Shown in pieces: positions 40,384 to 63,371 of a stretch of 64,000 nt of DNA. Numbering within the stretch: position 1 is the first letter of the stretch; each line of letters opens with the position of its first letter. Below the pieces are notes generated by a model. The model was not told the DNA's origin. It saw only the letters and a list, made by a program, of their open reading frames with translations, and did no database searches. Where the stretch lies: the NCBI GenBank assembly GCA_963736675.1, contig CAVTPT010000001.1, forward strand, positions 101,671-165,670, given 5' to 3'. A program made the position numbers and the translations under genes. This DNA comes from an uncultured Bacteroidales bacterium (lineage in GTDB: Bacteria; Bacteroidota; Bacteroidia; Bacteroidales; VadinHA17).

Positions 40384-43300
40384 CCCTGTTTACAGCAATA
40401 TTCTGACAATAACTGTACGACCTGCCTTATCGGGAGGCGTAATTGAGGAGGACCAGACAATTTGTTACGGAGGCGATCCGGCAAGGTTCGATAATGTAAC
40501 TGCTGCCAGCGGTGGCGGCGGATCTTTCACATACTTATGGTTTTATACTACCAACATGCTTACAGTGCCCGGAGATGCTGACTGGACAAGTATTCCGTCA
40601 GCCACTGGTACAGGTTACAACCATGGAACCCTTAACACAACAACAAAATTTGTCAGGAGGGCCATTGATGCCACATGTTCAACTCCTGTTTACAGCAACC
40701 AGGTTACCGTAACGGTTCATCCTCAGCTGAACGGCGGAACAATAGCCAGCAGTCAGACGATATGCTATAATGATAATGTTCCGGCCTTTGAAAGTACTGA
40801 AGATGCAACCGGAGGAGCAGGATTATTTACATATACATGGTTTTATACAACAAGTACAACAGCTGTTCCGGGGGGCCCCGGCTGGACTACTGTTCCATCA
40901 AGCAACAGCACAGTTTATGATCACGGAACCCTTACCGCAACCACAAGGTTTGTAAGAAGGGCCGTTGATGCCTCATGTACAACCCCGGTTTACAGCAATG
41001 TGATAACTGTTACAGTTCGTCCCGAACTTACAGGAGGAGGCATAACAGCAAGTCAGACAATTTGTTACGGCGATGATGTTACCGCATTTTCCAGTACGAC
41101 AGCGGCCGGAGGTGGTGCAGGAGCCTTTACATACAGCTGGCTCTCCACAACAAATATGACAGCTTCTCCGGGAGATCCTGCCTGGAATGAGATCCCTTCA
41201 ACCAATGCCCTGATATATGATCATGGTACTCTGACAGCCACAACACGGTTTGTCCGTAAAGCGGTCGAGAGTACATGTACAACACCCGTTTACAGCAATA
41301 TCCTCACAGTCACTGTCAGACCGGAGTTATCCGGTGGAGTGATAGCAGACGATCAGACAATTTGTTACGGAGCTGACGTTGCAGTATTTTCAAGTACCGA
41401 CGATGCCACCGGAGGAGCCGGTAACTTCACTTATACGTGGCAATATACAACCAACCTGGCAGCCATAACAGGGGATGGAACATGGACAGATATTCCATCA
41501 AGCGATAATGAGACTTATAATCATGGCACCCTTACTGCCACAACGAAATTTGTGCGGATGGCAGTTGATGCCTCCTGTTCTACGCCTGTCTACAGTAATG
41601 AGGTTACTGTGACAGTCAGACCGGAACCTGATGGAGGTACCATTGCGGCAGCCCAGGTAATTTGCTCAGGAGGTGATCCGGAAGCTTTCACAAGTATTGA
41701 TGGAGCGACCGGCAGCTCGGGCTCATTTACATACACATGGTTGTACAACACCAATCCGTCAGCTGTTCCGGGTGGTCCCGGCTGGATCGAAGTTCCCTCA
41801 AGTAACAGTACCGTATATGACCACGGAACCCTTACCACAACAACATTGTTTGTCAGACGGGCTGTTGATGCTGTTTGTTTAACTCCGGTTTACAGTAATG
41901 TAATCGAGGTAACAGTAATGCCTGCTCTTTACGGGGGCGTAATAAGCGCCAGTCAGTCGGTATGTTACGGAGATGATCCGGAAGCATTTACAAGTCTAAA
42001 TGATGCAAGCGGAGGTACCGGAGCATTCACATACACATGGCAATATACCACAAACATGGCAGCAACTGCCGGAGATGCCAACTGGACAGATATTAATGAT
42101 TCAGACGACCCCGGATATGACCATGGGGTGCTGCTCGTCCCGACCAGGTTTGTCCGAAAAGCAACAGATCTCGCCTGTAGTAATCCTGTTTATTCAAATA
42201 TACTTACCGTTGCCATAGATCCTCTGCCTGTTACATCTGAGATAACAGGAGAATCAATACTGTGTGAGGATTCTGATGACCAGATCTATCGTGTGGTCAA
42301 CACATCGGGTTCTGCCTATTTCTGGACTGTTCCGGCTTCATTTACGATAATATCCCCACAGGGATATAATGTCATAATTGTACAGGTAAACGGAACAACA
42401 AATCCGGGAGATGTGATCACCGTTACAGAAACCAACACAGCGACTGACTGTGTCGGTGATCCTGTTGAGTTTCCTGTAACAGTACTGCCGGTAATGCCAT
42501 TAGCCGATGTTACTGGTCCGTCTGTAGTATGTCAGGGTGATGCCGGAGTTATATATTCAGTTCCTGATAATCCCGGATCGACTTATGCCTGGTTCGTACC
42601 GGCCGGAGCATCAATTACTTCCGATCCTTCACTGCACCAGATAGAAGTCACATTCAGTATGGCAATATCAGGCCAGATTGCATGTATTGAAACCTCAAAT
42701 CTGATTTGTACCACAGTACACAATCCGGCTGTTGTAACGGTCAATACTTTGCCAGGTATCTACACTGTTTCTGCTACACCATATTATTGCTACGGCACTG
42801 ATGGAGTTACAGTTACACTAAGCAATTCACAGGCAGGAGTTAATTACCAGTTGCTTAAAGATGGTGTTGCTGAGGGATCAGCCATACCTGGTACGGGTTC
42901 CTCAATTACCTGGCCGGATATGAAAGCAGGAATCTATATGGTCCGGGCCGCTTCAGCTACATCACCCGTCTGTGAGGTACTGATGAACGGCAATCCAGCT
43001 GTTGAAGAGAATCCCGAAATAGTGATCAGCAGTATTACAATCACAGAACCAAAATGTTACGGTTCCACCGACGGTTCAATAGTGATAAATGCAAGCGGAG
43101 GATTCCCTCCTTTATCCACCCTTACATATTCAATTAACGGTGGAACGACATTTTTTGCTTCAAATACATTTACAAATGTCGGCCAGGGAACATACAATAT
43201 TGTTGTAAAAGACCTGAGGAACTGTACTGTAGCTTCTGCACCGGTAACAGTAAATCAACCATCTGAACTTACAATCACTTCATTAACTGTTACAACTCCG

Positions 43301-49300: not shown

Positions 49301-52237
49301 GAGACGATCTGCCCCGGAGAGACCTCTGTCTTAACAATTGATATAATGTCGGGTACCGGTCCGTTTGAGATAGATATTGATCCTATCGGGACTATTTCAT
49401 ATGAGATCGGAGATGAGATAACAGTGACCCCGGTTATTACAACAACATACAGTCTCTTAAGGGTCAGGGATGCCAATAACTGTGAGGTTGTCAGTCCGTC
49501 TCCAAACCTTGGCGACGATGTGACCGTATTTGTCAGCGACCTGCCTGATATCACATCATTTAATCCTTCACTGCCTGTATGCGAATTCTCGTTCGCCACA
49601 TTCAATGTGGAAGCAACCGGAACCAACCTGACTTATCAGTGGTGGGTGGATGAAGGAGAAGGAGCCGGATTTGTTGAGGTTGAGGATGGTGCCACATATT
49701 TCGGTGCACAGACAAATACACTCCTTATATTCACTGCCATGAGGGAAATGGATGGCTATGTTTATCGTGTGGTCGTTTCGGGATGCGGTGTTGAAGAACA
49801 GTCTGTTGATGCCGTTTTCAGGGTAAATACAGCACCTGAGCTGACACTCCATCCAAGGGACACTGTCATCTGCCTCGGGCAGGATGCCGTAATGGAAGCT
49901 GAAGCTGACGGAGACGGAATAGAATGGCAATGGTTTGTAAACAGGGGAACAGGATTTGAACCGGTTGCAGATGATGGAGTGCTCTTCAGCGGAGCCGAAA
50001 CGCAAACGCTTACCATAACCAGTCCTCCGTATTCAGCAAGCCCCTGGATCTTCAGGGCAATAGCCAATGGCAGTTGCGGAGTGCCGGTCTATACAAATTT
50101 TGCGGTGATGAGGGTACTTAATCCTCCTTTAGTAACCCGACAGCCCGAATCTGATCCTGTTTGTGAAAACAGTAATATAATGATGACAGGAAACGGTACA
50201 GGTTTCACAAGCCTGCAATGGCAGGTTAACATCAGCGGGACATGGACCGATATAACTGACGATCTGACTTACCTTGGTGCCAGATCGCAGCAGCTGAATA
50301 TAATGGGAGCACCTCTCTCATTTAATGGTAACCAGTACAGGCTCGCTTTGATAACAAGCTGTGCTACAGTCTATACAGATGTTGTTACACTCACTGTCAA
50401 TGCAAATCCAACTGTAAACTTCCTTGAAGATCCTGTCTTCGCCTGCGGAGGTGTTGATGAAATAATAGATGGAAATCCGGCTGGCGGATCAGGAATCTAT
50501 ACAAGACATCGCTGGACAGGTGATGTAGGTCCCCTGAACAATTATACGGTACAGGCCCCGGTGTTTAATTCTTTAATACCAGGAGACTATAATCTGACTT
50601 ACCGGGTTGAAGACAGCAACGGGTGTGTCGCCAGCGATGACATTGTTGTCACAGTCGACTCTCCTTCTGCCTTGTTTACACAGGATAAGGATTATGGATG
50701 TACCCCTCTTGCAGTGACCTTTACATCAGACATGACAGATATCGTTAAATGGTGGTGGGATTTTGACGACGGCTCTCCCCTTGATTCTATAAATGATACT
50801 CCTGTTCACACCTTTGTCAACAACGATCCGACATCAATCCAGTACCGTAAAGTAACATTAAAGGTACTCTCTGCGGGTGGATGCTATGCAACCTTTGAAT
50901 CAATGGTGATAGTTTACCCAGGCATTGATGCAACATTTACTCCCGACACCGATATTATCTGCAGTGGCAATTCTATTAATTTTGCAGCCGCACCGGGAGC
51001 AAGCAGATACTTCTGGGACTTTGGTGACCTCTCTTCGGGATATGCGACCGGTAATACGAGCCACCTTTACATAAATCATGGAACCGGACCTGTTGTTTAT
51101 ACCGTACGGCTTATAACTACTTCGTTCTATAATTGTATTGATGAAGCTACATATAATATAACGGTAATGCCGGTTCCGATACCACAGTTCACTGCTGAAC
51201 CTGCAATCCAGGTCTTTAATCCGGCTGGAAGTGACGTCACATTCACCAACGAAACCAACGATGGATCGTGGACCTGGTTATGGAAGTTCGGAGACGGGGA
51301 AACATCAACAGAAGAAAACCCGGTACATAATTACATGGATGTCGGTGAGTTTGTTGTAACCCTTATTGCCGGTAATGCTTCCTGTTCCGACAGTGTCAGT
51401 CACACAGTAACAGTGCTTCCGATTCCTCCGGTGGCTGACTTTGATTCAATTCCGTCGGGATGTGCACCTCTTTATGTACAGATAAATAACACTTCGTTAA
51501 ATACCGAGGCTCCGGGAACAACTTTCAGATGGTCCTTCGGGGATGGCAGCTATTCGACAGCCAAAAATCCGACCTATACTTACTTCACGCCGGGAACATA
51601 CAGGATCGAACTGACTGTAACAGGTCCCGGAGGAACTTCAATAGTGTCGCAGGTTGTCAATGCCTATCCTTCACCCAAGGCCTATTTTGAGGTTACACCA
51701 ATACTTGTCTATGTTAATGATGAGAGAGTAAGGTGCTTCAACCTGAGCCAGGGAGCCAACTCCTTCCTGTGGGAGTTTGGTGATGGTGATACTTCAAAGA
51801 TGAGGGAACCATACCACAAATATATGGAAGAGGGTGTCTACGACATTACCCTCTGGGCATACTCCGATAACGGATGCACCGATAAGTATGTACTCTCTCC
51901 CGGAGTAACTGTTGAACCTCCCGGAGAATTAAGGTTTGCCACAGTCTTTACCCCAAACAAGGAGGGACCTATAGAACGTACCGATCTGCCTACCGGTGGT
52001 ACTGAGATCGACCAGTTCTTCTTCCCGCCTATCAGACAAAAAGTGCTGGATTATAAACTACAGATATTTAACAGATGGGGTGTGCTGATATTTGAGAGCC
52101 ATGATATTAATGTTCCATGGAACGGTTATTACAATGGCACATTATGCCAGCAGGGAGTGTATGTGTGGTATGTCGAAGGCAAATTTTCCGATGGTAAACC
52201 GTACAGACAGGTTGGAGACGTGACTCTGTTGCATTGA
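40145..52237 (+). CDS. Giant T9SS adhesin, main part: ~100-aa Ig-like repeats, ~23 SprB-like repeats, Ig and PKD domains, type-B (gliding-motility) C-terminal domain
   Basis: Repeats C..G.TG.I.VTV.GG...Y...W.....EDL.GLKAGTY.LTVTD.NGC; PKD WWDFDDG, WKFGDG, WSFGDG, WEFGDG; C-terminal FTPN...IFNRWG..IFES...WNG...GVY.W. Confidence 0.88.
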   Translation: MPDRPSVMVRMLPPLQVAEQLTGGSDSFTYTWLYTTSTTAPLGDAAWIEIPSTNSTAYNHGTLTATTRFVRRAVDATCTNPVYSNILTITVRPALSGGVIEEDQTICYGGDPARFDNVTAASGGGGSFTYLWFYTTNMLTVPGDADWTSIPSATGTGYNHGTLNTTTKFVRRAIDATCSTPVYSNQVTVTVHPQLNGGTIASSQTICYNDNVPAFESTEDATGGAGLFTYTWFYTTSTTAVPGGPGWTTVPSSNSTVYDHGTLTATTRFVRRAVDASCTTPVYSNVITVTVRPELTGGGITASQTICYGDDVTAFSSTTAAGGGAGAFTYSWLSTTNMTASPGDPAWNEIPSTNALIYDHGTLTATTRFVRKAVESTCTTPVYSNILTVTVRPELSGGVIADDQTICYGADVAVFSSTDDATGGAGNFTYTWQYTTNLAAITGDGTWTDIPSSDNETYNHGTLTATTKFVRMAVDASCSTPVYSNEVTVTVRPEPDGGTIAAAQVICSGGDPEAFTSIDGATGSSGSFTYTWLYNTNPSAVPGGPGWIEVPSSNSTVYDHGTLTTTTLFVRRAVDAVCLTPVYSNVIEVTVMPALYGGVISASQSVCYGDDPEAFTSLNDASGGTGAFTYTWQYTTNMAATAGDANWTDINDSDDPGYDHGVLLVPTRFVRKATDLACSNPVYSNILTVAIDPLPVTSEITGESILCEDSDDQIYRVVNTSGSAYFWTVPASFTIISPQGYNVIIVQVNGTTNPGDVITVTETNTATDCVGDPVEFPVTVLPVMPLADVTGPSVVCQGDAGVIYSVPDNPGSTYAWFVPAGASITSDPSLHQIEVTFSMAISGQIACIETSNLICTTVHNPAVVTVNTLPGIYTVSATPYYCYGTDGVTVTLSNSQAGVNYQLLKDGVAEGSAIPGTGSSITWPDMKAGIYMVRAASATSPVCEVLMNGNPAVEENPEIVISSITITEPKCYGSTDGSIVINASGGFPPLSTLTYSINGGTTFFASNTFTNVGQGTYNIVVKDLRNCTVASAPVTVNQPSELTITSLTVTTPVNCNGSSTGSVRVFIAGGTPLYSYQWYYDQFFASPIPGQISADATGLPAGTYYVKVTDINGCWKSGSITLTQPPAITGSGIVSTAVSCYGINDAIITVTATGGSGSLEYDLNGLNIWNNTGVFSGLGAGTYSIRVRDALAVSCIVNLQDVVITQPSELLVSVTSQANVLCFDGTTGAIGVTVSGGTLPAGGYLFSWTGSDYLGNAFTSTSEDLNGLKAGSYGLTVTDANGCTAILPPVTITQPPVLAVALDSQTNVLCYGETNGSITVTATGGAGPYTYAWTGTNYLGGAYFSPAEDISGLRAGTYNLRVTDANGCQRVLPAVIVTQPVALVLVVDDKTNVLCYDDATGAINVTVTGGVMPAGGYLYEWTGTDYLGNLFNSTLEDLASLKAGNYALTVTDANNCEITLPAVSITQPPDLTVTLNATVDVLCHDVATGAAYITVSGGVQPIGGYSFSWSGTDYLGNLYSSTVEDPSGLKAGTYDLVVTDQNGCTATLSDVVINQPPDLTVITEDQINVLCYNGTNGEIDVTVSGGVMPAGGYIYSWTGADYLGTYFASSSEDLTGLKAGTYNLAVRDANSCSVILPAVIITQPAAFTVSLDGKTDILCYDESTGSINVTVAGGVEPAGGYLFTWTGTDYTGTAFTSTDEDLTGLKAGTYLLSVGDANNCTVNLPAVTITQPADLTVSVNSQANVLCFDGTTGAISVTISGGTLPAGGYLFSWTGSDYLGNAFTSTSEDLNGLKAGSYGLTVTDANGCTAILPPVTISQPPVLAVALDSQTNVLCYGETNGSITVTATGGAGPYTYAWTGTNYLGGAYFSSAEDISGLRAGTYNLRVTDANGCQRLLPAVIVTQPVALVLVVDDKTNVLCHDDATGAINVTVTGGVMPAGGYIYEWTGTDYLGNLFNSTLEDLADLKAGNYALTVTDANNCEITMPAVSITQPPDLTVTLNATVDVLCHDAATGAAYITVSGGVQPIGGYSFSWSGTDYLGNLYSSTVEDPSGLKAGTYDLVVTDQNGCTATLSDVVINQPPDLTVITEDQINVLCYNGTNGEIDVTVSGGVMPAGGYIYSWTGADYLGTYFASSSEDLTGLKAGTYNLTVRDNNNCIVTLSTVTITQPPQFTVIRDDQVNILCHDGATGEINVTVSGGVIPAGGYIYEWTGTDYLGNSFSSADEDLAGLKAGIYSLTVTDANGCEAVLPLVSLTQPPDLTVTLLSVTNVMCHDAATGAINVNVSGGVMPAGGYTYTWTGTDYLNNAYSGSTEDPSGLKAGTYDLTVTDNNMCTVALSTVTVSQPDDLTVVLEDQTNVLCYDAATGAIDITAAGGVMPSGGYYYTWTGTTYQGGAFNSNMEDLTGIKAGTYNLTVRDANGCSVILPAVIITQPAAFTVSLDGKTDILCYDESTGSINVTVAGGVVPAGGYLFTWTGTDYTGTAFTSTDEDLTGLKAGTYLLSVGDANNCTVNLPAVTITQPADLAVSVNSQANVLCFGEATGAIYVTVSGGTIPAGGYLFNWTGTDYMGNSYTSNDEDLAGLYAGTYNLTVTDQNGCNVSILPVTITAPLPLVIDVNVTSNYNGRDISCTGAFDGRATATVTGGTGIYFYTWYSDPGFSVPIGQMAPSAINLAAGEYYVRVMDMNGCSITGSVTLTDPPLLDASVVTLTNVDCFNNATGAVTVEAVTGSGTGPYSYSKDGGFTWQPAGEFTGLSAMTYTILVRDANNCIKAVPVIITQPSQLIATISDFDNVSCSGGNDGSVTITVPAGSGTAPYTYTINGTDWQPGGAFTGLTAGSYNIEVRDDNNCSVILPVIISEPPLLELNPTADIVLDCYDDHDGTGTFYAVGGTPGYTFTQILNGADATFAAQGYNSQIIFNAGAGVVTVMVTDSKGCNTEASITFTEPDILEPGSIGNDQVLCYGESPAALVQIDPPDGGPLPFDFKFQWQYSATGSEPFLNISGAVQEGFTPDSPATGTLYYRRMVTSGFCQPVYSNIVEVLVNPRPIAVLRGGETICPGETSVLTIDIMSGTGPFEIDIDPIGTISYEIGDEITVTPVITTTYSLLRVRDANNCEVVSPSPNLGDDVTVFVSDLPDITSFNPSLPVCEFSFATFNVEATGTNLTYQWWVDEGEGAGFVEVEDGATYFGAQTNTLLIFTAMREMDGYVYRVVVSGCGVEEQSVDAVFRVNTAPELTLHPRDTVICLGQDAVMEAEADGDGIEWQWFVNRGTGFEPVADDGVLFSGAETQTLTITSPPYSASPWIFRAIANGSCGVPVYTNFAVMRVLNPPLVTRQPESDPVCENSNIMMTGNGTGFTSLQWQVNISGTWTDITDDLTYLGARSQQLNIMGAPLSFNGNQYRLALITSCATVYTDVVTLTVNANPTVNFLEDPVFACGGVDEIIDGNPAGGSGIYTRHRWTGDVGPLNNYTVQAPVFNSLIPGDYNLTYRVEDSNGCVASDDIVVTVDSPSALFTQDKDYGCTPLAVTFTSDMTDIVKWWWDFDDGSPLDSINDTPVHTFVNNDPTSIQYRKVTLKVLSAGGCYATFESMVIVYPGIDATFTPDTDIICSGNSINFAAAPGASRYFWDFGDLSSGYATGNTSHLYINHGTGPVVYTVRLITTSFYNCIDEATYNITVMPVPIPQFTAEPAIQVFNPAGSDVTFTNETNDGSWTWLWKFGDGETSTEENPVHNYMDVGEFVVTLIAGNASCSDSVSHTVTVLPIPPVADFDSIPSGCAPLYVQINNTSLNTEAPGTTFRWSFGDGSYSTAKNPTYTYFTPGTYRIELTVTGPGGTSIVSQVVNAYPSPKAYFEVTPILVYVNDERVRCFNLSQGANSFLWEFGDGDTSKMREPYHKYMEEGVYDITLWAYSDNGCTDKYVLSPGVTVEPPGELRFATVFTPNKEGPIERTDLPTGGTEIDQFFFPPIRQKVLDYKLQIFNRWGVLIFESHDINVPWNGYYNGTLCQQGVYVWYVEGKFSDGKPYRQVGDVTLLH
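43790..46600 (+). repeat. Near-identical intragenic duplication with 1575-bp offset (five SprB-type repeats copied)
   Basis: gtcaggcaaatgttct at 43791 and 45366; long matching blocks; a sixth repeat at ~45044 recurs at ~47411. Confidence 0.88.
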
Positions 52238-52326: not shown

Positions 52327-52447
52327 CCGGTTCAGTGGCTCTCCCACTATAGCCCCGGTTAACCCTGTTTCAACTCTTTTCAACGTTTTTTTCATTTTTC
52401 TGATAAAAAAGTCCCTGAAATACACCATTCGTTTAGAATTATTTTTC

Positions 52448-52455
52448 TAAATTTG
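52448..52455 (+). promoter_or_regulatory. Possible -7 box (TAAATTTG) upstream of the hlyD-PCAT operon
   Basis: Exact TAnnTTTG match ~180 bp upstream of the HlyD start; no clear -33 box. Confidence 0.3.
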
Positions 52456-52637
52456 GTTAGCTGCATTTCTAAATCGCAAAGTCATGTCTCTTTTTGATCA
52501 AAAAAAAGGATGCATTTTTTGTCTGCTTTGCACCTCTGTTTTTCCCCTGATACCTGAAATCAGTCGGTCTCTGAACTGTTTTCAATCAGGGAATCCATTT
52601 AACCTTATCAAATTCAGTCACCCAATCTGCACAGCCG

Positions 52638-53810
52638 ATGGACCTGATACCTTTTAATCTGAGCAATTACACTCTTGAGAACTATCTTCTGAAGATCACC
52701 ACACGCACCAGGATCATTTACTGGGTCATTATCGGGTATGCAATAGCCGCTATTGCTGCCCTGCCATTAATTTCGGTTGATGTCCCGGTACAGGCAAGAG
52801 GATTTTTTCAATCGGAGATAGAAAAACAGACAATCCTCGCTCCGTTTCAGGGAAGAGTCATATATGCATCCCTGAAGAACGGACAGTATATCAGAAAAGG
52901 AGATACCCTTTTAATAATTGACTCTGAAGCGTCAAGGGCGCAGAAGAGGTCGATCCTCGATAAGTTAATGAAGAATGATTCAGCCATATCAGATCTTGAA
53001 AAGCTGACCGTTCTCAGTAAGCCCGACGACAGGCTGAAAGCCTCTGATTTCAATACTGAGCGGTATTTTTCTGAATTCTCAGCCATGATTAAAACCTGGA
53101 ACATCCAGTATCAGAAATATCTGAAGGCAAGGGCTACTCACCAACGAAATGAAATTCTCCACGAAAAGGAGATAATCCCCGATAATGAATATGAGAATAC
53201 CCTTTATGTTTACAGATCGGAGGCGGAGAATCTTAATCAGGTCCTGATTCAGCATAAAAGTATGTGGCAGACCGACCTTTTACAGAGGAAGATTGATGCC
53301 GGCACATTTCAGGCTGAGCTGGGGAGGTATTCGGAGGAGCTTAATAACAGGATTGTGGTGTCGCCGGTCAGCGGAGATATCATACAGAGTGCTGACATCC
53401 AGGAAGGGACAATAGTATCAATTAATCAGCTGGTGGCTGAAATTTCGCCTGAGGGGAACCTGCTTGCTACCTGTTTTGTGAGACCATCCGACATTGGACT
53501 GATAAGAGCTGATCAAAAAGTGCGTATACAGGTTGATGCATTTAACTATAATGAATGGGGACTCTTAACGGCCAGTATACTTGATATCTCAAACGATATT
53601 ATAGTTCAAAACGGAAACGAGGCGTATTTCAGAATAAGATGCAAGCCTGAATCTGCCTCATTGTATATGAAGAACGGTCTTAAGGCTGATATCAGGAAAG
53701 GGATGAGCTTTAATGCCAGGATAATTGTCACAAGGCGGTCACTTTTTAACCTTTTATTTGATAAGGCCGACGACTGGTTTAATCCTTATTCAAACCAGGA
53801 GGAGGGATAG
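52638..53810 (+). CDS. HlyD-family membrane fusion protein
   Basis: Single N-terminal TM, QARGFF, LAPFQGRV, VRKGDTL-like IRKGDTLL, SPVSG, DIGLIRADQKVRIQVDAF..WG. Confidence 0.9.
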   Translation: MDLIPFNLSNYTLENYLLKITTRTRIIYWVIIGYAIAAIAALPLISVDVPVQARGFFQSEIEKQTILAPFQGRVIYASLKNGQYIRKGDTLLIIDSEASRAQKRSILDKLMKNDSAISDLEKLTVLSKPDDRLKASDFNTERYFSEFSAMIKTWNIQYQKYLKARATHQRNEILHEKEIIPDNEYENTLYVYRSEAENLNQVLIQHKSMWQTDLLQRKIDAGTFQAELGRYSEELNNRIVVSPVSGDIIQSADIQEGTIVSINQLVAEISPEGNLLATCFVRPSDIGLIRADQKVRIQVDAFNYNEWGLLTASILDISNDIIVQNGNEAYFRIRCKPESASLYMKNGLKADIRKGMSFNARIIVTRRSLFNLLFDKADDWFNPYSNQEEG

Positions 53811-53814
53811 AAAA

Positions 53815-55977
53815 ATGAATATCGGGATCAGACAGAGGGATATCTCCGATTGCGGGGCAGCCTGCCTTGCTTCAGTGGCAGCATGGTACAGGGTAAAGGT
53901 TCCGGTTTCAAGGATCAGGCAATATGCCGGGACCGATAAAAAAGGTACAAACGTACTTGGTCTGGTCGAGGCAGCAACAAAAATAGGATTTCTGGCAAAA
54001 GGTGTAAAAGGAGAGTGGGAGAGCCTGTTCAAGATTCCCCGGCCGGCAATAGCTCATGTTATTGTAAAAGGAGTACTGACACACTACGTGGTAATTGTAA
54101 ATATATCGGAATTAATTGTTGAAGTGATGGACCCCGCTGACGGGAAGCTTCACAAAATTTCTCACGAGGAGTTTAAGAAGCAGTGGACCGGGGTTCTCGT
54201 ACTGATCGTTCCGGGGGAGAAATTTACAATGAGGAATGAGGAAGTCGCAGTTACTGCACGGCTGTGGAGACTGATTAAGCCAAACCGCGGCGTACTTCTG
54301 CAGGCTCTTGCAGGGGCACTTTTATTTTCGGTATTGGGACTCTCAATGTCGCTCTATGTCGGCAGACTGGTTGACCATGTCATACCGGGAGGCAATCTGA
54401 ATCTTCTGAACCTGCTTGGCATCGTAATGATTGTCATAATTCTGTTCAGGATATTACTCAGCTTTTTCCAGTCTCTTTTTGTGCTCAGGACGGGTCAAAG
54501 GATAGATGCCTCGTTAATACTTGGATATTATCAGCACCTGCTGAGACTTCCGCAATCATTTTTCGACAATATGCGAACCGGGGAGATCATTTCCAGGATA
54601 GGCGATGCCGTAAAAATAAGGGTATTCATCAACGATGTAACTATTAATCTGATATTGAATATTTTCATCCTGTCGGTTTCCTTTATCCTTATGTTCACAT
54701 TTTTCTGGAAGCTTGCTCTTGTTATGCTCGTTGTTGTACCATTATATTTCTTAATCTATTATATATCCAACAGACTTAACAGGAGGGTGCAGCGAAAGGT
54801 AATGGAGCGTTCTGCAGATCTTGAAGCACAATTTGTGGAATCGCTTAATTCAGCGGGAACAATTAAGAGGTTTGGACTTGAGGAGTATTCAAATTTTAAA
54901 ACTGAGATCAGGTTTACGTCGTTGCTTGAGACTCTTTACAGTTCGGGATTGAATAATATCTTCTCTTCTCTCTCCAGCGGGCTGGTGACACAGCTTATAA
55001 CACTGCTTGTCCTCTGGACCGGAGCAGGATTTGTCCTTTCTGCCCTGATCACTCCCGGCGAATTGCTTTCCTTTTATGCTGTTACCGGGTACTTCACCGG
55101 GCCTGTCACGGGGATAATAGGTTTTAACCGGACCCTGCAGGATGCCAGAATAGCAGCTGACCGTTTATTTGAAATATTTGATCTTGATACGGATGATGAA
55201 TCAGGCAGGATCGAACTTAAGAAAGAGATGGTTGATGATATAAGTTTTGAAGATGTCAGGTTCAGGTACGGAACAAGAGTTGAGGTCTTCAGATCGCTGA
55301 ACCTCAAAATCAGGAAAGGAGAGATAACAGCAATAGCCGGGGAGAGCGGATCAGGCAAGAGTACTCTTGTATCGTTGCTGCAGAACCTTTACCCACTGCA
55401 GGAAGGACATATCAGTATCGGAAGGTATAACCTTCTTCATCTGACAAACAGCTCCATCAGGAAAATTATTTCTGTGGTGCCTCAGAAGATTGATCTTTTT
55501 GCAGGTAATATCTTCGACAATATAGCACCTGGTGAAATCACGCCCGATACTGAAAAGGTAATGGCTGTATGCGAAAAGCTTGGGATGACTCAATTTGTTG
55601 AGAGCCTGCCAAATGGTTTCAGCACCTATATCGGGGAAAACGGAGTGGCCCTTTCAGGGGGACAGAGACAGAGGATCGCAATTGCCAGAGCTCTCTACGG
55701 CGATCCTGAAATAGTGATCCTCGATGAGGCTACCTCTTCTCTTGATGCCCTGGCGGAGATGTTTGTACGTAATGCGCTGAAGATACTTCGTGATGAGGGT
55801 AAAACGGTAATTCTGATAGCTCACAGACTCTCTACCATTAATCTGGCCGACAGTATCATTGTACTTGACAGGGGCGAAGTTGTCCAGAATGGCACATATC
55901 GCGAGTTGTCAGCTGCTGAGGGGCATTTCCGTAAGATGTATTTTCAACAGGGGATTTTAGAAACAGTAACAACCTAA
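53815..55977 (+). CDS. Peptidase-containing ABC transporter (C39 + ABC; double-glycine peptide exporter)
   Basis: QRDISDCGAACL (catalytic Cys), THYVVI, MDPADG; Walker A GESGSGKST, LSGGQRQ, VILDE; start MNIG at 53815. Confidence 0.95.
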   Translation: MNIGIRQRDISDCGAACLASVAAWYRVKVPVSRIRQYAGTDKKGTNVLGLVEAATKIGFLAKGVKGEWESLFKIPRPAIAHVIVKGVLTHYVVIVNISELIVEVMDPADGKLHKISHEEFKKQWTGVLVLIVPGEKFTMRNEEVAVTARLWRLIKPNRGVLLQALAGALLFSVLGLSMSLYVGRLVDHVIPGGNLNLLNLLGIVMIVIILFRILLSFFQSLFVLRTGQRIDASLILGYYQHLLRLPQSFFDNMRTGEIISRIGDAVKIRVFINDVTINLILNIFILSVSFILMFTFFWKLALVMLVVVPLYFLIYYISNRLNRRVQRKVMERSADLEAQFVESLNSAGTIKRFGLEEYSNFKTEIRFTSLLETLYSSGLNNIFSSLSSGLVTQLITLLVLWTGAGFVLSALITPGELLSFYAVTGYFTGPVTGIIGFNRTLQDARIAADRLFEIFDLDTDDESGRIELKKEMVDDISFEDVRFRYGTRVEVFRSLNLKIRKGEITAIAGESGSGKSTLVSLLQNLYPLQEGHISIGRYNLLHLTNSSIRKIISVVPQKIDLFAGNIFDNIAPGEITPDTEKVMAVCEKLGMTQFVESLPNGFSTYIGENGVALSGGQRQRIAIARALYGDPEIVILDEATSSLDALAEMFVRNALKILRDEGKTVILIAHRLSTINLADSIIVLDRGEVVQNGTYRELSAAEGHFRKMYFQQGILETVTT

Positions 55978-55989
55978 ACACTATATGTC

Positions 55990-56331
55990 ATGAAAATATT
56001 TGAATATCTCGATCGCATCGGCAGAATGCACAAGCTGGTTCAAAGGCGGAGAACCGGGACCCCGGAGGAATTTGCGCGGCAGCTGGGCGTAAGCCGTACA
56101 AGTCTGTATGAGTTAATTGATGAATTAAGATCGCGGGGTGCTCCTATTTCTTATTCAAAGGCAGCAAAGACTTATTACTACAGCGAGCCTTTTGATATAT
56201 CAGTAACATGTTCTCTCCGGCCCATGACATACCTTGAGGAAAAACAGGTGTCGGGGGGGAATATTTTCGATAGAATCCTTTTTTTCCGGATCTTAAGTAC
56301 TGAAATTAGTGGTACTGTATTTCAGTGCTAA
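55990..56331 (+). CDS. Small winged-HTH DNA-binding protein with a C-terminal double-glycine-leader-like extension
   Basis: TGTPEEFARQLGVSRTSLYELIDELRSRGAPISY; tail SLRPMTYLEEKQVSGG-NIFDRILFF. Confidence 0.78.
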   Translation: MKIFEYLDRIGRMHKLVQRRRTGTPEEFARQLGVSRTSLYELIDELRSRGAPISYSKAAKTYYYSEPFDISVTCSLRPMTYLEEKQVSGGNIFDRILFFRILSTEISGTVFQC

Positions 56332-56383
56332 AACCCCTGGCCTATAAATGGGGGATCAAAAAAATTAATTAAATTTAATTGTC

Positions 56384-56566
56384 ATGAAAATTGAAAATTT
56401 TTCCGTAAGAGAACTGACCTCCGAGGAGCAGATCCAGATCAACGGAGGAGGCTTTTTTGCTGATGTGTGGGGTGCGATATGCACAGCCGCAAAATGGATT
56501 TGGGAAAATGTAACCTTTTCAGTGGAGTACCAAACCGGTGATTATACATGGAAGGCTTCAACATGA
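56384..56566 (+). CDS. Double-glycine leader peptide precursor (class II bacteriocin-like, Trp-rich core)
   Basis: Leader MKIENFSVRELTSEEQIQINGG fits L-S/T-x-x-E-x-x-x-I-x-G-G; downstream of a C39 PCAT; AT-rich ribosome-binding region. Confidence 0.88.
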   Translation: MKIENFSVRELTSEEQIQINGGGFFADVWGAICTAAKWIWENVTFSVEYQTGDYTWKAST

Positions 56567-56630: not shown

Positions 56631-57824
56631 GTGAAAACTATACTGATTTTGATAAATAAAAACTTCATTGTGAAATACTATTTTATATTATTCTTTCTGG
56701 TTCAATTTTTTAACATTAATTCATTATTTTCTCAAATTAAAGTGAGAATTCAACTTGTTGAAAAAGAATCAAAGTTGACTATTCCTTTTGCATACATAAA
56801 GGTTCCGAGTAAAAATATTGTTTTGAATTCAGATCAGGATGGTTTCTTTTCTACCGAATTATCTAAGAATGACACAATTGAAATAACTCATGTTGCATAT
56901 AAGAGTCTAAGAATTGCATATTCGGATATAGGAAAAAATGCCACAATAGAATTAGATGAATTACCAGTACTACTTAATCCTATAATTATTAGTTCAAAAA
57001 ATGCGGAAATAACTGTTAAAAGAGCGATTGGGGCCACTTACGAATCAATGCAAACTCCAATGAATTTTTCCTGTTTTCGCAAAGATCAAATTACAATAAA
57101 CGATACTTTAGTGACTGAGGCGGATGCAGAAATAATTTATAAACTGAAGAAATTGAATTCTGCTAGTCACGGGGGAAATTTAAAGAGTTATTTAATAAAT
57201 GTTCATGTTTATAAGAATTCTTTGTTTAATAAATTAATGATCCCTAATTATTTTCTTGGGGCGATTTTTGCTCCAATAAACACATTTATTGCCGGGTTTT
57301 CAAAAAATGATGATCAATTATTAAATTTCAGTTATCAAGAAGGAAACGATTCTTTGATTATCGTAGGGGCGAAACCAAAAAAAAATATAAGACCAAAAAA
57401 TGGGGAATTAATAAAACAAGGCAATTTTGTAATAAATAAAAACACTGGAAAATTAATTCAAATTGTAACAAGTTTAAGTCCTGAGATGATGGAATGGGGA
57501 CGGAACAATTCTTCCAGAGAAAAAAATCCTAATCTTTTTTATTATCATTATACATTCTCTCAATATTTTGATCAGGAAGGATTTCCGTCAAGGGTGTCTT
57601 GCAGTATAAAGTTTTCCATTAAAGAAGATAATCCCAATAAAATATGGAGTAATAATTCAGAGCTAATTTTTACAAAATTGTCCCAGGACGATTTAATATT
57701 GGATAAATCCCATGAATTGAATAATGATTCTACCCTTGTCCAGATGAAATCCAGATTTGATCCTGATTTTGAAAAGAGGTTCACCAGATATATTCCTTCT
57801 ACCGGAACCGATAATAATCAATAA
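56631..57824 (+). CDS. Secreted protein with N-terminal CarboxypepD_reg-like domain
   Basis: Signal-like N-terminus, IPFAYIKV...NSDQDGFF...DTIEITHVAYK; very AT-rich; start uncertain (56631 or 56658). Confidence 0.7.
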   Translation: MKTILILINKNFIVKYYFILFFLVQFFNINSLFSQIKVRIQLVEKESKLTIPFAYIKVPSKNIVLNSDQDGFFSTELSKNDTIEITHVAYKSLRIAYSDIGKNATIELDELPVLLNPIIISSKNAEITVKRAIGATYESMQTPMNFSCFRKDQITINDTLVTEADAEIIYKLKKLNSASHGGNLKSYLINVHVYKNSLFNKLMIPNYFLGAIFAPINTFIAGFSKNDDQLLNFSYQEGNDSLIIVGAKPKKNIRPKNGELIKQGNFVINKNTGKLIQIVTSLSPEMMEWGRNNSSREKNPNLFYYHYTFSQYFDQEGFPSRVSCSIKFSIKEDNPNKIWSNNSELIFTKLSQDDLILDKSHELNNDSTLVQMKSRFDPDFEKRFTRYIPSTGTDNNQ

Positions 57825-58042
57825 TTTTAAAGACGGGGTAATCCCGGGGATATATATCCCGATGAAAGACCGGAACTTATTCCTGTAAATATTCCGTGCC
57901 AGCCAGTTACTGGCAGCCCCATCAAAAAAACTATTTCGCCCGCTACGGGGCTTGAATATCATTTGTATATAATATAGGACGGGCTTCGCCCATCCCTGTG
58001 GTATTTCAGGCCTACGGCCTTTAAATCAGAGTGAGAGTGAGT

Positions 58043-59160
58043 GTGAGGAAATCCATTGCACAGAAATAGTACAGCTCTATAAATTGGGTCTGTTTGTATG
58101 AATGCCTGAGCATCTGAATCTGAACGCTGTCAGTGCGGACTACTTTAAACAATCTGGTCACAATTGGATTTGAGCTCCGTAGGAGCGGCCTGTTTGTAGT
58201 AACGCCTGCCCCCTAACGGTTTTAAGCACCGTCAGCGCGGCCTGTAGTTAATTGAAGACAGGTAAATTCCTTTAAGGGTTTTGGATCAACAAGGGTTTCA
58301 TGTCTCCCAAAACAACAGAATCAAAAAACCAGTCCGCCCTGACGGGGCTCGATATTCTTTTCATGATTGATTTCTACAAACAGTCCGCCCCCACGGGGCT
58401 GAAGAAGGAGCGAGAGTGAGGAAATCCATTGCACAGAAATAGTACAGCTCTATAAATTGGATTTGTTTATAGAAATACCTGAGACCTCAGGATCTGAGCA
58501 CCGTCGGCGCGGCCTTCCTGTAACAATCTGGTCACCATTGGTTTTGAGCTCCGTAGGAGCGGCCTGTTTGTAGTAATGCCTGCCCCCTAACGGTTTTAAG
58601 CACCCTCAGCGCGGCCTGTAGTTAATTGAAGACAGGTAAATTCCTTTAAGGGTTTTGGATCAACAAGGGTTTCATGTCTCCCAAAACAACAGAATCAAAA
58701 AACCAGTCCGCCCTGACGGGGCTCGATATTCTTTTCATGATTGATTTCTACAAACAGTCCGCCCCCACGGGGCTGAAGAAGGAGCGAGAGTGAGTAAATC
58801 CATTGCACAGAAATAGTACAGCTCTATAAATTGGATTTGTTTGTAGAAATACCTGAGACCTCAGGATCTGAGCGCCGTAGGTGCGGCCTTCCTGTAACAA
58901 TCTGGTCACCATTGGTTTTGAGCTCCGTAGGAGCGGCCTGTTTGTAGTAACGCCTGCCTCCAACGGTTTTGAGCGCCGTCAGCGCGGCCTGTAGTTAATT
59001 GAAGACAGGTAATTTCCTTTAAGGGTTTTGGATCACCAAGGGTCTCATGTCTCCCGAAACAACAGAATCAATAACCAGTCCGCCCTGACGGGGCTCGATT
59101 TTCTTTTCATGATTGATTTCTACAAACAGTCCGCCCCCACGGGGCTGAAGAAAGAGTGAG
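58043..59160. repeat. Three tandem ~374-bp units built from REP-like hairpins in both orientations (BIME-like)
   Basis: aaatccattgcacag at 58049, 58422, 58796; agctccgtaggagcggcctgtttgtag (58173) inverted against ctacaaacagtccgcccccacggggct (58374). Confidence 0.9.
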
Positions 59161-59173
59161 AGTGAGAGCAGGT

Positions 59174-59838: not shown

Positions 59839-60048
59839 TTATTGATAATTTTCGTCTGTTACATAGCTTTTTCTGATCGGACAGTATCTTATCTCATTGC
59901 CCGATTTCCGGAGTTCAGAAATAATCCGTTTGACACTTCTTTCACTAATTTCAAGTCTTGTCGCAAGCTCTGCAGGAGTCCCGGTGCACTTTAGGGAAAC
60001 AAGCCTGCTTATCCTGACTTTCAGATTATGACTATTGTTCCTGGCCAT
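59839..60048 (-). CDS. Small winged-HTH protein, paralog of 55990-56331
   Basis: TGTPAELATRLEISERSVKRIISELRKSGNEIRY..RKSY. Confidence 0.8.
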   Translation of the reverse strand: MARNNSHNLKVRISRLVSLKCTGTPAELATRLEISERSVKRIISELRKSGNEIRYCPIRKSYVTDENYQ

Positions 60049-60228
60049 AATATTCAGATTTAATTACCATTAAATCGAGGCAGACAGTATAAAATTAAAC
60101 CTTATCTGAATAAAAGTCAAGAAATTTTAGGGATTTTTAGTAAATACTTTAGAGACAGATTCCTTAACAGGATTTCTGATCAACTTTTTTCCGGTTCAGG
60201 TAAGATATAAAAAGAAGTAACAAACATA

Positions 60229-62016
60229 TCACCTTTCAAACCTGCTGTTTTGCTTTGTATACATTGCGAAATAGAGCCCGCCTTTTTTCATCAGTTCCCC
60301 GTGGGTGCCCGATTCAATAATTTCACCCCTGTCAAGTACAATGATCTTATCGGCCAGCGAGACATTTGTAAAACGGTGACTAATCAGGATGGCTGTCCTG
60401 TCGCTGACTGTTTCCCTGAACCTGCTGAAGATCTCAAATTCGGTGTCTGCATCCAGAGCGCTCGACGGCTCATCGAGAATAAGTACAGGGGCATCCCTGA
60501 ATATGGCCCTCGCCAGGGCAATTTTCTGCCATTCCCCCCAGCTAAGCTCCCTGCTGTCGTCAAGAAGGGTCCCGATATTTGTATCGTAACCTTCAGGAAG
60601 TGAGCTGATCAGTTCATGAACCCCCGACTCCAGGGCTGCTTTCTTTATCTTAATTTCAGGATCAGCTGAATCAAGATCACCAATCCGGATATTTTCTCCT
60701 GCCCTGAGGTTGTACAGCATAAAGTCCTGGAAAACCACTGAAAAGAGTCTTCTGTACTTTTCAGGATCAATGTTCCTTATGTTATTACCATCGATTCTGA
60801 CCGACCCGGTAGCCGGATCATATAACCTTGTCAGAAGTCGTACAAGGGTACTTTTACCCCCGCCGTTAGGTCCTACAACAGCCAGTATCTCCCCTTTTTT
60901 GATCTCAAAGGATACATTGTTTATTGCCGGGGATTTATTACCCGGATATGTAAATGACAGATTCTCAACCTCTATATTTTTCATAAGGGTTGAAACTGAT
61001 ACAACAGGAGGTGCAGCTGTTATTTTTTCTTCAAGGCTGAGGAATTCAAATGTATCGCCAATGAAAAGACTATCCTCATAAAGCCCTGCCAGCGAGCCAA
61101 AAAGCTCTTTAATAAATATCATACCCTGACGGAATGCGAGAAGGAACATTGCCATCTCACCGAGAGTCAGACTGTTATTTATTGTTTTGTTTACGGTGAA
61201 CAGGATAAGGAAAAGCATTGCGGCAGCTTTCACAATATCCGAGACTATCTCAATAAGCATTCTCTTCCGGGCAATGTTGATTTCCTCTTCCTTAACACTA
61301 AGAAATGATTTCCGGAAGAGGCTGATGAAATACTCCCCAAGTCCGAATAATCTCAATTCCCGTGACGGTCTCTCCCCGGTTATCAGCCAGTTGAAATATG
61401 CCGACCTCCTTGATTCGGGGGTCTGTTCTCTCTGAAAAGTATAAAGAACATCGGCGTAATGTAGTCTGAGCCAGATCCCCGGGATATTCACAACAAACAG
61501 AAGCAGTGCCATGGTCCAGTGAAGAGAAACAAGAAGAAATGCCATCATGATCAGAGAAAGTAATGCCCGCATCATCAGAATAAGGTTATTCAGAATGCTG
61601 TTGGGCCGCCATGGAGCTTCCCTTGCAGCCCGGGTCAGCAAGTCGAAATATCCGGGATATTCGAAATTGATAAGGTCGAGTTTTACAGCCTTTGAATGAA
61701 GCAGATTGTACATGTGGATCTCCAGCTTCATCGATTGTTTCTTCTTGACATAATTGCCGAAATCGGAGACAGCTTCATCGATAAAATATAATATTACAAC
61801 AGCAGCAATGATCCCTATAATATCATTAATGGATTTATCTCCTGTGTCAGAAACCGTGAGTGTTATCTGATCGACAAGAATTTTTATAAGCAGGAGCAGA
61901 GCAAGGGGTGTGAAGCTGCGGATAACAGAGACCAGTGTGTTAACAAGCGCCCATCCGGGTGCACTCTGCCAGACAAGGACCAGTGATTCCCGGAACAACT
62001 TATACTTTTCTCTCAT
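60229..62016 (-). CDS. ABC exporter, fused permease/ATPase (RiPP-cassette type)
   Basis: Six TM segments, GPNGGGKST, LSWGEWQKIALAR, ILDEPSSALD, LISHR. Confidence 0.92.
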   Translation of the reverse strand: MREKYKLFRESLVLVWQSAPGWALVNTLVSVIRSFTPLALLLLIKILVDQITLTVSDTGDKSINDIIGIIAAVVILYFIDEAVSDFGNYVKKKQSMKLEIHMYNLLHSKAVKLDLINFEYPGYFDLLTRAAREAPWRPNSILNNLILMMRALLSLIMMAFLLVSLHWTMALLLFVVNIPGIWLRLHYADVLYTFQREQTPESRRSAYFNWLITGERPSRELRLFGLGEYFISLFRKSFLSVKEEEINIARKRMLIEIVSDIVKAAAMLFLILFTVNKTINNSLTLGEMAMFLLAFRQGMIFIKELFGSLAGLYEDSLFIGDTFEFLSLEEKITAAPPVVSVSTLMKNIEVENLSFTYPGNKSPAINNVSFEIKKGEILAVVGPNGGGKSTLVRLLTRLYDPATGSVRIDGNNIRNIDPEKYRRLFSVVFQDFMLYNLRAGENIRIGDLDSADPEIKIKKAALESGVHELISSLPEGYDTNIGTLLDDSRELSWGEWQKIALARAIFRDAPVLILDEPSSALDADTEFEIFSRFRETVSDRTAILISHRFTNVSLADKIIVLDRGEIIESGTHGELMKKGGLYFAMYTKQNSRFER

Positions 62017-62491
62017 CCGTATATAAGTTATTTTTAAAGATCATTTTTATCCTGTTAAATCTCAATACAAACCATACCAGCACCCTGTTTACCGGATACA
62101 GGGGATTATGGTCCGAAGTCAGGCTACGGGTCAGCAGAATTCCCCGGTTGTTTTGAATCTTTATGACTTTCCCGGCTATCTGATCTTCCGGAACCGGCTG
62201 GTCTTCATGCATGCAGCTGTCTCCTCTTGTTATGTAAAGTGTCCGTTCCCCCTCGTTAAGCTTCCGGACTATCCTGTGAACTACAAAGCCTGAATCCCTT
62301 TTCCATGCAATTATTTCACCGGCAACCGGCACATTTTCCTGGCTGAAAGGTTCAATATAGATAGTTGATCCCGGTTCTATGGCAGGGAACATACTGTAAC
62401 CACAGGCTTTTATCTTCAGGATTGTGCCTTCGGAAAGAAGGGTAAAACCGATATCTTTCAATGTAGTATGGATCGGCTTCTCCTTATTCAT
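62000..62491 (-). CDS. S24/S26 (signal-peptidase-like) peptidase
   Basis: GYSMFP (catalytic Ser), GEIIAW, VVHRIV, ITRGD; start likely MNKEK at 62491, overlapping the upstream stop. Confidence 0.8.
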   Translation of the reverse strand: MNKEKPIHTTLKDIGFTLLSEGTILKIKACGYSMFPAIEPGSTIYIEPFSQENVPVAGEIIAWKRDSGFVVHRIVRKLNEGERTLYITRGDSCMHEDQPVPEDQIAGKVIKIQNNRGILLTRSLTSDHNPLYPVNRVLVWFVLRFNRIKMIFKNNLYTDERKV

Positions 62492-63371
62492 TTTCGAGTA
62501 TGTAATCAATTACCCTGCGGGTGGGTGTGAACGAAAGCGAAGCGACCGGTATTACAGAACACATTATGGAGACTGAACCAAGGAAACGGGCAATCATTTC
62601 CGGATCCCAGTTATGTTGTATGCAGTTGGCAATCACATGACTGATGGCTGAGGCTCCTTTAACAGGGGTAATCCTGTTACATGTACCATGTTCCAGCAGA
62701 AAGATCCTGTCGAGCGGCGATTGTAAAGGTTCATCGTCCCTGTAGACAGGGGTGTTGAACATCCTGTAAGTCCCTCCGATGCTTCTTATAATAAGCCTGT
62801 CGTCATGAATAACCTTAGCTCCGGATTCATCCCAAAGTTTGGCCATTGTCGTTTTACCTTTCCCGGAAACACCGCTGAAAAGATAACCATGGCCCGAAAT
62901 ATTTATTCCTGAAGCATGGATCATAATATCACCGAGTATGGCTGTAAGATAATAAAGTATCAGACCATCCATCGGATATTCAAGAGGATCGACCGGGGCT
63001 TCATGGCTTTCAATCCAGAGGTCCCATTCACGGAGAAGCAATGAAAATTTAAGAGAAGCAGTTTTTTTCAGGGAGGTGTCAGGGAAGGAACAGGTGATAA
63101 ACATATCGGAACCACGCCTGTAAACACTCCAGAAATTTTCTCTTTTCTGGACCTTGATTCCCTTAAGTTCTACGATATAAGGAGCCACAAAAACTCTTTC
63201 CGCTTCTTCAGGAATACGGTATTCTCCGGTATGGACCCTGATCAGAACGTCGTAATCGCTCTGTCGAACAATATTCCTGAGAAACCTTTCGGCTGGTAAA
63301 AGATCGGGACCGCCGGCGGTTGCCTCCAGCCTGATATTATACCCGGCGATATTCAGATTATAATCCCTCAT
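62484..63371 (-). CDS. HPr-kinase-related P-loop protein (ScmC/lasso-kinase-like)
   Basis: MIHASGI..G.GYLFSGVSGKGKTT, VIHDDRLII, FNTP. Confidence 0.78.
   Translation of the reverse strand: MRDYNLNIAGYNIRLEATAGGPDLLPAERFLRNIVRQSDYDVLIRVHTGEYRIPEEAERVFVAPYIVELKGIKVQKRENFWSVYRRGSDMFITCSFPDTSLKKTASLKFSLLLREWDLWIESHEAPVDPLEYPMDGLILYYLTAILGDIMIHASGINISGHGYLFSGVSGKGKTTMAKLWDESGAKVIHDDRLIIRSIGGTYRMFNTPVYRDDEPLQSPLDRIFLLEHGTCNRITPVKGASAISHVIANCIQHNWDPEMIARFLGSVSIMCSVIPVASLSFTPTRRVIDYILENE

Follow-up and report, generated by a model that had tools for sequence, protein, structure and literature searches.

Peptidase-containing ATP-binding cassette (ABC) transporters (PCATs) cut and export peptides and small proteins. 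Secretion-coupled regulators are known from other machines, namely FlgM with sigma-28 in the flagellar type III secretion system and ExsE in that of Pseudomonas, and in Gram-positive bacteria a three-component scheme controls bacteriocin genes through a double-glycine (GG) pheromone processed by a PCAT, such as BlpC or ComC, a histidine kinase and a response regulator. In Bacteroidota, we know of essentially no description of how bacteriocin and peptide-signalling loci are regulated. Here we analyze a stretch of 64,000 nucleotides from an uncultured Bacteroidales bacterium (contig CAVTPT010000001.1, positions 101,671 to 165,670), hereafter the window, in which a gene for a 113-residue helix-turn-helix (HTH) protein lies between a PCAT gene and the gene of a GG precursor peptide. 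The protein, which we call HTH-GG, carries a putative GG leader of its own behind its DNA-binding domain.

The closest described systems are the GG peptides processed by PCATs or ABC transporter maturation and secretion (AMS) proteins, such as ComC with ComA, CtA with PCAT1, LahA with LahT, the class II bacteriocins and the bacteroidetocins. HTH-GG resembles them in the pattern L(-12)-S/T(-11)-x2-E(-8)-x3-I/V(-4)-x-G-G, set in a predicted helix, and in the position of its gene beside a C39-ABC transporter, an HlyD protein and ordinary GG peptides. It departs from them in that the leader follows a folded DNA-binding domain instead of opening the polypeptide, and in that only a non-conserved stub follows GG, with no conserved or hypervariable bioactive core. 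The long-leader precursors of the NHLP and Nif11 families, as they appear where Haft et al. 2010 is cited in PMC6363468, share with it a domain-sized N-terminus, a GG site, a short C-terminus and an association with PCATs. Set against what that citation conveys, HTH-GG differs in that its N-terminus is a winged HTH (wHTH) whose recognition-helix motif is intact and which has free-standing paralogs, that its locus is without modifying enzymes, and that a single regulator-placed gene is found per locus rather than a family with hypervariable cores. Our searches of the full-text literature returned no HTH regulator with a GG leader and no regulator or transcription factor cleaved by a PCAT; a study that mined Bacteroidales for ribosomally synthesized peptides with post-translational modifications (RiPPs) lists an HTH gene merely as a possible regulator (PMC10352776).

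All genes of the locus lie on the forward strand. The membrane fusion protein of the exporter, of the HlyD family, is encoded at 52638..53810 (Pfam HlyD_3, 1.4e-18; TIGR01843, 5.6e-34), in a synteny that is kept in about 55 of 71 related loci. The PCAT, comprising C39 peptidase, ABC transmembrane and ATPase domains, follows at 53812..55977 (TIGR01193, 1.9e-152; Pfam Peptidase_C39 2.1e-31, ABC_membrane 6.3e-44, ABC_tran 4.6e-29), the ATG at 53812 being its likely start. Its C39 domain aligns with PCAT1 (4RY2/7N87) at an E-value of about 1e-34, and the motifs DISDCGAAC, LTHYVVI and VMDP, whose Cys, His and Asp we take to be the catalytic residues, are the same as in PCAT1 at the aligned positions; since these motifs are retained, the domain is predicted to be an active protease. 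The HTH-GG gene (55990..56331) begins 12 nt past the PCAT stop and encodes the wHTH domain in residues 1-70 (55990..56199), the internal GG leader SLRPMTYLEEKQVSGG in residues 75-90 (56212..56259), and a 23-residue, Phe-rich tail, NIFDRILFFRILSTEISGTVFQC, which together with the stop codon occupies 56260..56331. The precursor peptide, of 60 residues and with the leader MKIENFSVRELTSEEQIQINGG, is encoded at 56384..56566, 52 nt past the HTH-GG open reading frame (ORF), and its orthologs are found downstream of the HTH gene in other loci (L007, L025-L027, L043).

A first-pass annotation of the window had noticed that the C-terminal part of the HTH protein aligns without gaps to the leader of the neighbouring precursor, and this observation holds. 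Anchored at GG, SLRPMTYLEEKQVSGG and the precursor segment SVRELTSEEQIQINGG are identical at positions -16, -14, -11, -8, -5, -2 and -1 and match conservatively at -15, -12, -7, -4 and -3. Over the 14 residues before GG the BLOSUM62 score is 24, a value reached by 0.02% of 100,000 shuffled peptide leaders; when the peptide leader is slid along the whole HTH protein, the true register scores 36 and every other register 4 or less. Across loci, HTH leaders compared in register with the peptide leaders of the same locus score 11.9 on average, against -4.3 for scrambled ones (0/2000), with a small within-locus excess (11.9 against 9.2 +/- 0.8 between loci, 1/2000) that is confounded by phylogeny. 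The predicted C39 cut site falls after G90, in the pair G89-G90.

The GG motif is also conserved among homologs, which the same annotation had made a test of its idea. Across 52 diverse homologs G89 never varies, and conservation of G90 is at least 90%. In a wider census of the site, restricted to the best 148 short representatives of 50%-identity clusters, -2/-1 read GG in 108, AG in 19 and SG in one, that is, [GAS]-G in 128; the other 20 comprise 18 short or truncated proteins and two with GR or GN, of which the GR is an AG that was misaligned. Among the 128 representatives that span the site, -1 is Gly in 100%, and hydrophobic residues (L, I, V, M or F) occupy -15 in 87%, -12 in 91% (Leu in 75), -7 in 48% and -4 in 89% (Ile in 96), with Ser or Thr at -11 in 52% and Glu or Asp at -8 in 79%; PSLTQNELYQINGG and DLTEKEMKNINGG are examples of such leaders. 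To judge from the residues, this profile is the canonical C39 recognition pattern. The C39 domain LahT150 recognizes hydrophobic residues at -4, -7 and -12 of the leader, and a change of Leu-7 to Asp or Lys strongly impaired it (PMC6363468). By the C39 criteria of that study, the leader in the window fits at V-4, M-12, L-15 and E-8, and does not fit at -7, which is Glu. One homolog of 139 residues (P0004) has the leader segment duplicated in tandem (MRPLTYLEEKESTGGK followed by MRPLTYLEEKESTGG), with two GG sites.

Selection was gauged on 21 genes of the main clade by pooled Nei-Gojobori counts of the proportions of synonymous (pS) and nonsynonymous (pN) differences and of the ratio of the corresponding rates (dN/dS). 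Leader codons 77-90 combine a saturated pS of 0.73 with a pN of 0.17 and a dN/dS of about 0.07, which indicates purifying constraint at the protein level. The HTH domain gives a saturated pS of 0.72, a pN of 0.08 and a dN/dS of 0.035.

The N-terminal domain has the marks of a DNA-binding protein. Its only label in Pfam and NCBIfam is the generic HTH_11 domain (PF08279; 25.7 bits for a cutoff of 25), and no nitrile hydratase alpha (NHLP) or Nif11 domain was matched in either collection. AlphaFold2 (AF2), run on an alignment of 52 sequences, returns a confident wHTH in residues 1-70 with H-H-H-E-E topology (predicted local distance difference test, pLDDT, above 90), a short helix over the leader at residues 81-87 (pLDDT about 70), and a disordered tail at residues 97-113 (pLDDT below 50) that does not pack against the domain. 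The top Foldseek matches are the wHTH domains of BirA, NiaR, IclR and MexR, at probabilities of 0.99-1.0 and with E-values of only about 0.03 for so small a domain. We considered whether the wHTH might instead be a leader-binding domain like PqqD or the RiPP recognition element (RRE), and rejected this identity: no PqqD/RRE structure occurs among the top 50 Foldseek matches in the PDB, and the winged-helix matches in that list are all DNA-binding domains. An HTH of about 70-90 residues is viable as a regulator, given that short paralogs without GG occur as free-standing proteins.

HTH-GG is a large Bacteroidota family. A word-indexed search found 429 homologs, the best 120 of which are nearly all 113-114 residues long and 67-96% identical over their full length, and in 26 close homologs GG, E83, P78, C74, LFFR and the terminal Cys are invariant. 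With more than 400 full-length homologs of the same architecture, a sequencing frameshift or a one-off fusion was ruled out. A profile search of 1.84 billion cluster representatives returned 2927 members at E<=1e-3, of which 1776 also pass E<=1e-10, and a genome scan provided 71 loci from Bacteroidales, Rikenellaceae, Prolixibacteraceae, relatives of Marinilabiliales, Saprospiraceae (Neolewinella), Balneolales and Cytophagales. The alignment of distant members (33-46% identity) usually extends through residue 90, the end of GG, beyond which they diverge. Cultured carriers include Thermophagus xiamenensis DSM 19012, Neolewinella aquimaris DSM 105137 and Geofilum sp. Two very long predicted proteins, P0244 (1312 residues) and P0258 (1628 residues), have 10-13 matches each to the family profile, and may be either gene-calling run-throughs of arrays like that in locus L037, described below, or real multi-HTH proteins.

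The gene is tied to the exporter. Co-occurrence of the GG tail with an adjacent C39 PCAT, which the first reading of the window had proposed as a check, is found in 54 of the 59 assessable GG-tailed copies, which adjoin an orthologous HlyD-PCAT pair: 52 begin within 400 nt past the stop of an orthologous PCAT (52-76% identity), and two, in Thermophagus and Geofilum, lie just upstream of hlyD-PCAT. The other five are orphans whose fetched locus is without a PCAT, and one further copy was not assessable; four of the five orphan genomes, all well assembled, encode an orthologous PCAT elsewhere (54-56% identity), and the fifth is a fragmented draft. On the downstream side, a small ORF with a GG leader of the strict pattern follows within 700 nt of the HTH stop in 38 of 49 loci, at a median distance of 92 nt, while only 10 of 2595 control ORFs show that pattern. 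GG peptides also follow the orphan copies.

That reading had set the GG-tailed copy beside a paralog that lacks both the GG extension and a PCAT neighbour. Relatives without GG do exist, and they are not simply remote from PCATs: several of them (L003, L013, L016, L035) are encoded upstream of hlyD within such operons. In those four loci (L003:4630, L013:1481, L016:6096, L035:3716) the GG-less gene is a second HTH paralog, alongside the GG-tailed copy downstream of the PCAT, which makes two regulators per locus; other GG-less relatives are found upstream of a distant type of PCAT (L063, L066-L068). The C-termini of GG-less relatives are short and unrelated. As these relatives too sit by hlyD/PCAT operons, the link to PCAT loci appears to extend to the whole HTH family, with the GG tail as the mark of the HTH copy that stands between the exporter and the peptide genes.

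Since the leader is selected at the positions that C39 reads, and the gene is tied to a PCAT with intact motifs and to its substrates, the explanation that needs the fewest assumptions makes the regulator itself a client of the exporter. We consider the chances about even that HTH-GG regulates transcription locally, at an export locus for class II bacteriocin-like or GG peptides, and is at the same time a client of the PCAT of that locus, the exporter probably clipping it after GG. The first-pass suggestion that the HTH protein could be a substrate, decoy or sensor of the exporter is, as a hypothesis drawn from sequence, well supported.

The proposed sequence of events would run as follows. 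The N-terminal 70 residues would act as a wHTH of the BirA/NiaR type, and residues 75-90 as a leader helix for the cytoplasmic C39 domain, with hydrophobic knobs at -4, -12 and -15 and the cut past GG, leaving a disordered, Phe-rich stub whose peptide sequence would be irrelevant. The exporter would dock the regulator through the leader and most probably clip the stub, which would be threaded through or discarded; the product, of about 90 residues, would consist of the HTH and some 20 residues of leader, much like the free-standing short paralogs. With precursor peptides as presumed competitors for that C39 site, the state of the regulator would report both the presence and the occupancy of the exporter, and transcription of the adjacent peptide genes, through an inferred DNA target, would be coupled to export capacity, in the direction of either activation or inactivation. 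Such a secretion checkpoint would follow the logic of FlgM/sigma-28 and ExsE, in which the regulator is a client of a secretion machine and expression reads the state of the machine. It would differ from them in that the machine is a type I/PCAT exporter and the regulator is clipped rather than exported whole, and the HTH-GG case is a prediction. With the Gram-positive three-component scheme it would share control of bacteriocin genes by a PCAT-processed GG element, the difference being that the locus is without a kinase or response regulator and that GG element and DNA-binding protein form one polypeptide. That the PCAT is the processing protease of the transcription factor of its own operon, so that transcription of the peptide genes depends on whether the exporter is present and has capacity to spare, and that this arrangement is widespread in Bacteroidota, we put forward more tentatively.

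Several observations weigh against the exporter-client explanation. The HTH_11 score barely exceeds its cutoff, and whole-protein scans of Pfam and NCBIfam at E<=1 gave no match to bacteriocin-signal models such as TIGR01847. The leader of the clade to which the window belongs has drifted, with Glu at -7, and in the sister main clade -4 is also polar (Asn or Ser), so that efficient cleavage is doubtful in both, although the bona fide precursor of the window is likewise polar at -7 (Gln). The leader is internal, following a folded domain of about 70-75 residues, and not N-terminal as in short precursors, and among known substrates we know of a similar arrangement only in the NHLP and Nif11 long-leader families. 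Lastly, in three orphan genomes (G001, G002, G004) no HTH gene follows the orthologous PCAT, the flank available in G002 being only about 80 nt; the HTH-plus-peptide module can therefore detach, and its linkage to the PCAT is not obligatory.

Some of these points also suit other explanations, of which the best surviving, if an unlikely one, dispenses with the exporter altogether: the leader-like helix and GG would be a relic of an ancient event that fused the regulator gene to the gene of the first precursor, now kept in some other role, for example as a dimerization helix, a hinge ahead of a disordered tail or a partner-binding site. That the tail is incidental is clear, hydrophobic residues at -4 and -7 have been lost in the main clade, and the segment adjoins genes that encode leaders, with partial duplications of the HTH 3' end together with peptide cassettes in L005, L037 and L046; this adjacency and these duplications make recombination between leader sequences plausible. 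What a relic or a generic helix would not be expected to keep is the pattern itself: about 130 divergent representatives conserve exactly the positions relevant to C39 (-15, -12, -8, -4, -2 and -1), with an invariant Gly at -1 and the low leader dN/dS at saturated synonymous sites, and HTH-GG co-occurs at the genome level with an orthologous PCAT.

The same conservation and synteny would be found if the leader were a pseudo-substrate or tether, an alternative we regard as improbable. Here the leader would dock the regulator on C39 without productive cleavage, sequestering it at the membrane until precursors displaced it, which would provide feedback from peptide load, and GG would be kept for its fit to the cleft. 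The weakened knobs at -7 and -4 in the window clade would suit a poor or slow substrate (PMC6363468). Against this, the Cys, His and Asp motifs of C39 are intact and -1 is always Gly, and an active protease is expected to cut at a GG site; moreover, most members of the family have fully canonical leaders with Ile at -4.

On the exporter-client explanation the residues after GG are expected to be a disposable stub, and their conservation turns out to be one of nucleotides. Tail codons 91-114, in the same 21 genes, have a pS of 0.22, where the rest of the gene gives 0.72-0.74, a pN of 0.175 and a dN/dS of about 0.78; across the family, tail pieces have a median length of 21 residues and contain 13% Phe. 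DNA alignments of 32 loci reveal a nucleotide-level conservation of about 100 nt, which starts near codon 97, runs through the stop and ends about 25-35 nt beyond it (56275..56354, forward strand, in the window), after which the loci diverge completely into different peptide cassettes. The core of this element, CTTTTTTTCCGGA (56278-56290), is an invariant T-run, and its reading frame is not kept: 28 loci read it in frame 0, CTT TTT TTC CGG (L F F R); L035 and L037 use frame 2, TTT TTT TCC GGA (F F S G), as does L030; and L036 uses the third frame (frame 1). Nor is the end of the ORF fixed, as in L025-L027 the usual stop is absent and the ORF continues through the next hairpin, and the representative P0140 ends exactly at GG. 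The Prolixibacteraceae loci have a T7-8 run of their own and a conserved downstream sequence. Because the core DNA is kept and its frame is not, the 'FF' motif and the conservation of ILFFRT...LPC are by-products of the cis element, and the 23-residue tail is disposable, an incidental in-frame reading of that element. A role of the tail as a conserved bioactive peptide or as a membrane anchor was rejected for the main clade on the strength of the dN/dS, the frame changes and the disordered AF2 tail.

These results bear directly on the other suggestion of the first-pass annotation, that the protein is an HTH-fused precursor which releases a second peptide of 23 residues, the HTH domain and leader forming an oversized leader as in NHLP/Nif11 and the exported C-terminal peptide acting as a pheromone or bacteriocin: the GG leader, the adjacent PCAT, the short hydrophobic C-terminal piece, the copies and fragments duplicated among peptide cassettes (L037, L046, L005) and the existence of long protein-derived leaders ending in GG, to the extent conveyed by the citation of Haft 2010 in PMC6363468, all speak for it, and it is nonetheless very unlikely, given a tail that is conserved as nucleotides and not as amino acids, read in three frames and variable in its end, and an HTH domain on which purifying selection is strong and which has free-standing paralogs, hence is no degenerate leader scaffold.

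As for the cis element itself, single-sequence RNA folds yield three hairpins with z-scores of -1.9 to -3.5. Hairpin 1 surrounds the T-run, which in L054 forms the loop of a 12-bp stem. Hairpin 2 (56296-56329) includes the stop codon and is in the main clade a 28-bp near-palindrome, CTTAGTATGGTAAC|GTTACCATGCTAAA, with symmetric variants AT|AT and AG|CT and a further variant ATTGTAAG|CTTACAAT. Hairpin 3 (56334-56354), directly past the stop, is of the CCCCUGG..CCAGGGG type and shows the compensatory variants CCUCC/GGAGG, CCUC/GAGG and UCCA/UGGA. The hairpins were defined by these single-sequence folds and by inspection by eye; RNAalifold on a MAFFT alignment (A3) gave a weak consensus of 5 pairs only, because the 3' arms are out of register in that alignment. 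Searched against Rfam, the element had no match at the gathering threshold and no credible match at E<=10, and inspection by eye found no convincing Bacteroidetes-type promoter box (TTTG or TAnnTTTG) in it. None of the RNA runs that were searched contains the sequence. The core was rejected as a genome-wide regulatory site, as it occurs only once more in the 4.06-Mb genome, in an unrelated place. The element could be an operator for the HTH protein, an RNA structure through which the peptide mRNA is controlled in its read-through, stability or processing, or an anchor for recombination where conserved sequence gives way to variable sequence. A ribosome translating the tail passes through the three-hairpin element and its stop codon, and translation of the regulator may in this way also remodel the RNA leading into the peptide genes. 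In three loci, extra copies or arrays of the 3' half of the HTH-GG gene, with leader, tail and cis element, are found (L037:4079-11534, L005:11946-12110, L046:11992-12135), each copy preceding different GG-peptide genes in a manner that recalls orphan cassettes; this hints that the conserved element mediates the duplication or exchange of cassettes.

Around the locus, the window holds further features. Upstream of hlyD, at 52420-52640, lies a stretch (...TTTCTAAATTTG..., CATGTCTCTTTTTGATCAAAAAAAAGGATGCATT-like) that is conserved in L025 and L026 and has a TAAATTTG box fitting the Bacteroidetes -7 promoter motif TAnnTTTG, which makes it a candidate operon promoter or operator. Just before hlyD ends an ORF of 4030 residues (40145-52237, forward strand) with many repeated modules of about 95-100 residues, probably encoding a giant secreted or adhesin-type protein, and after it stands a perfect inverted repeat, GGGCTGTCACA...TGTGACAGCCC, that resembles a terminator. 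Downstream of the precursor peptide, a 397-residue protein (56631..57824, forward strand) has a weak CarboxypepD_reg-like match (Pfam CarbopepD_reg_2, E 1.3e-4, under the cutoff) and is lineage-specific, being found only in the subclade of the window (L007, L026, L027, L043). The interval from the GG-peptide locus to the short HTH paralog contains a 374-bp unit repeated in 3.0 tandem copies with 93% matches (58035-59166); this repeat has no Rfam match and contains short repeated ORFs only. The paralog itself, at 59839..60048 on the reverse strand, had been described as lacking both the extension and a PCAT neighbour, correctly on both counts: it is 69 residues long (HTH_11, 3.1e-5), matches the HTH-GG family profile only in residues 12-70 (E 1.4e-12), and adjoins an ABC transporter (60229-62016) without a C39 domain. 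This transporter, of 595 residues, and a 169-residue ORF without a Pfam match complete the reverse-strand group 59839-62509; the HTH-plus-ABC pair is found again at 11386-13516 of L026, a Rikenellaceae locus, and looks like a second, different conserved module.

These results carry a lesson for genome mining, in that the striking amino acid conservation of the tail arises from a nucleotide-level cis element, and pipelines that search for GG motifs would mis-file HTH-GG proteins as precursors. A GG/PCAT client whose N-terminal part is a DNA-binding domain could be new to the literature searched, and more than that if cleavage-dependent regulation were shown; with cultured carriers at hand, the idea is directly testable. 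A cut signal on a conserved family of DNA-binding regulators would add a regulatory logic to these exporters, in which the transporter is both sensor and activating protease, and, if true, this would be a secretion checkpoint new for ABC exporters.

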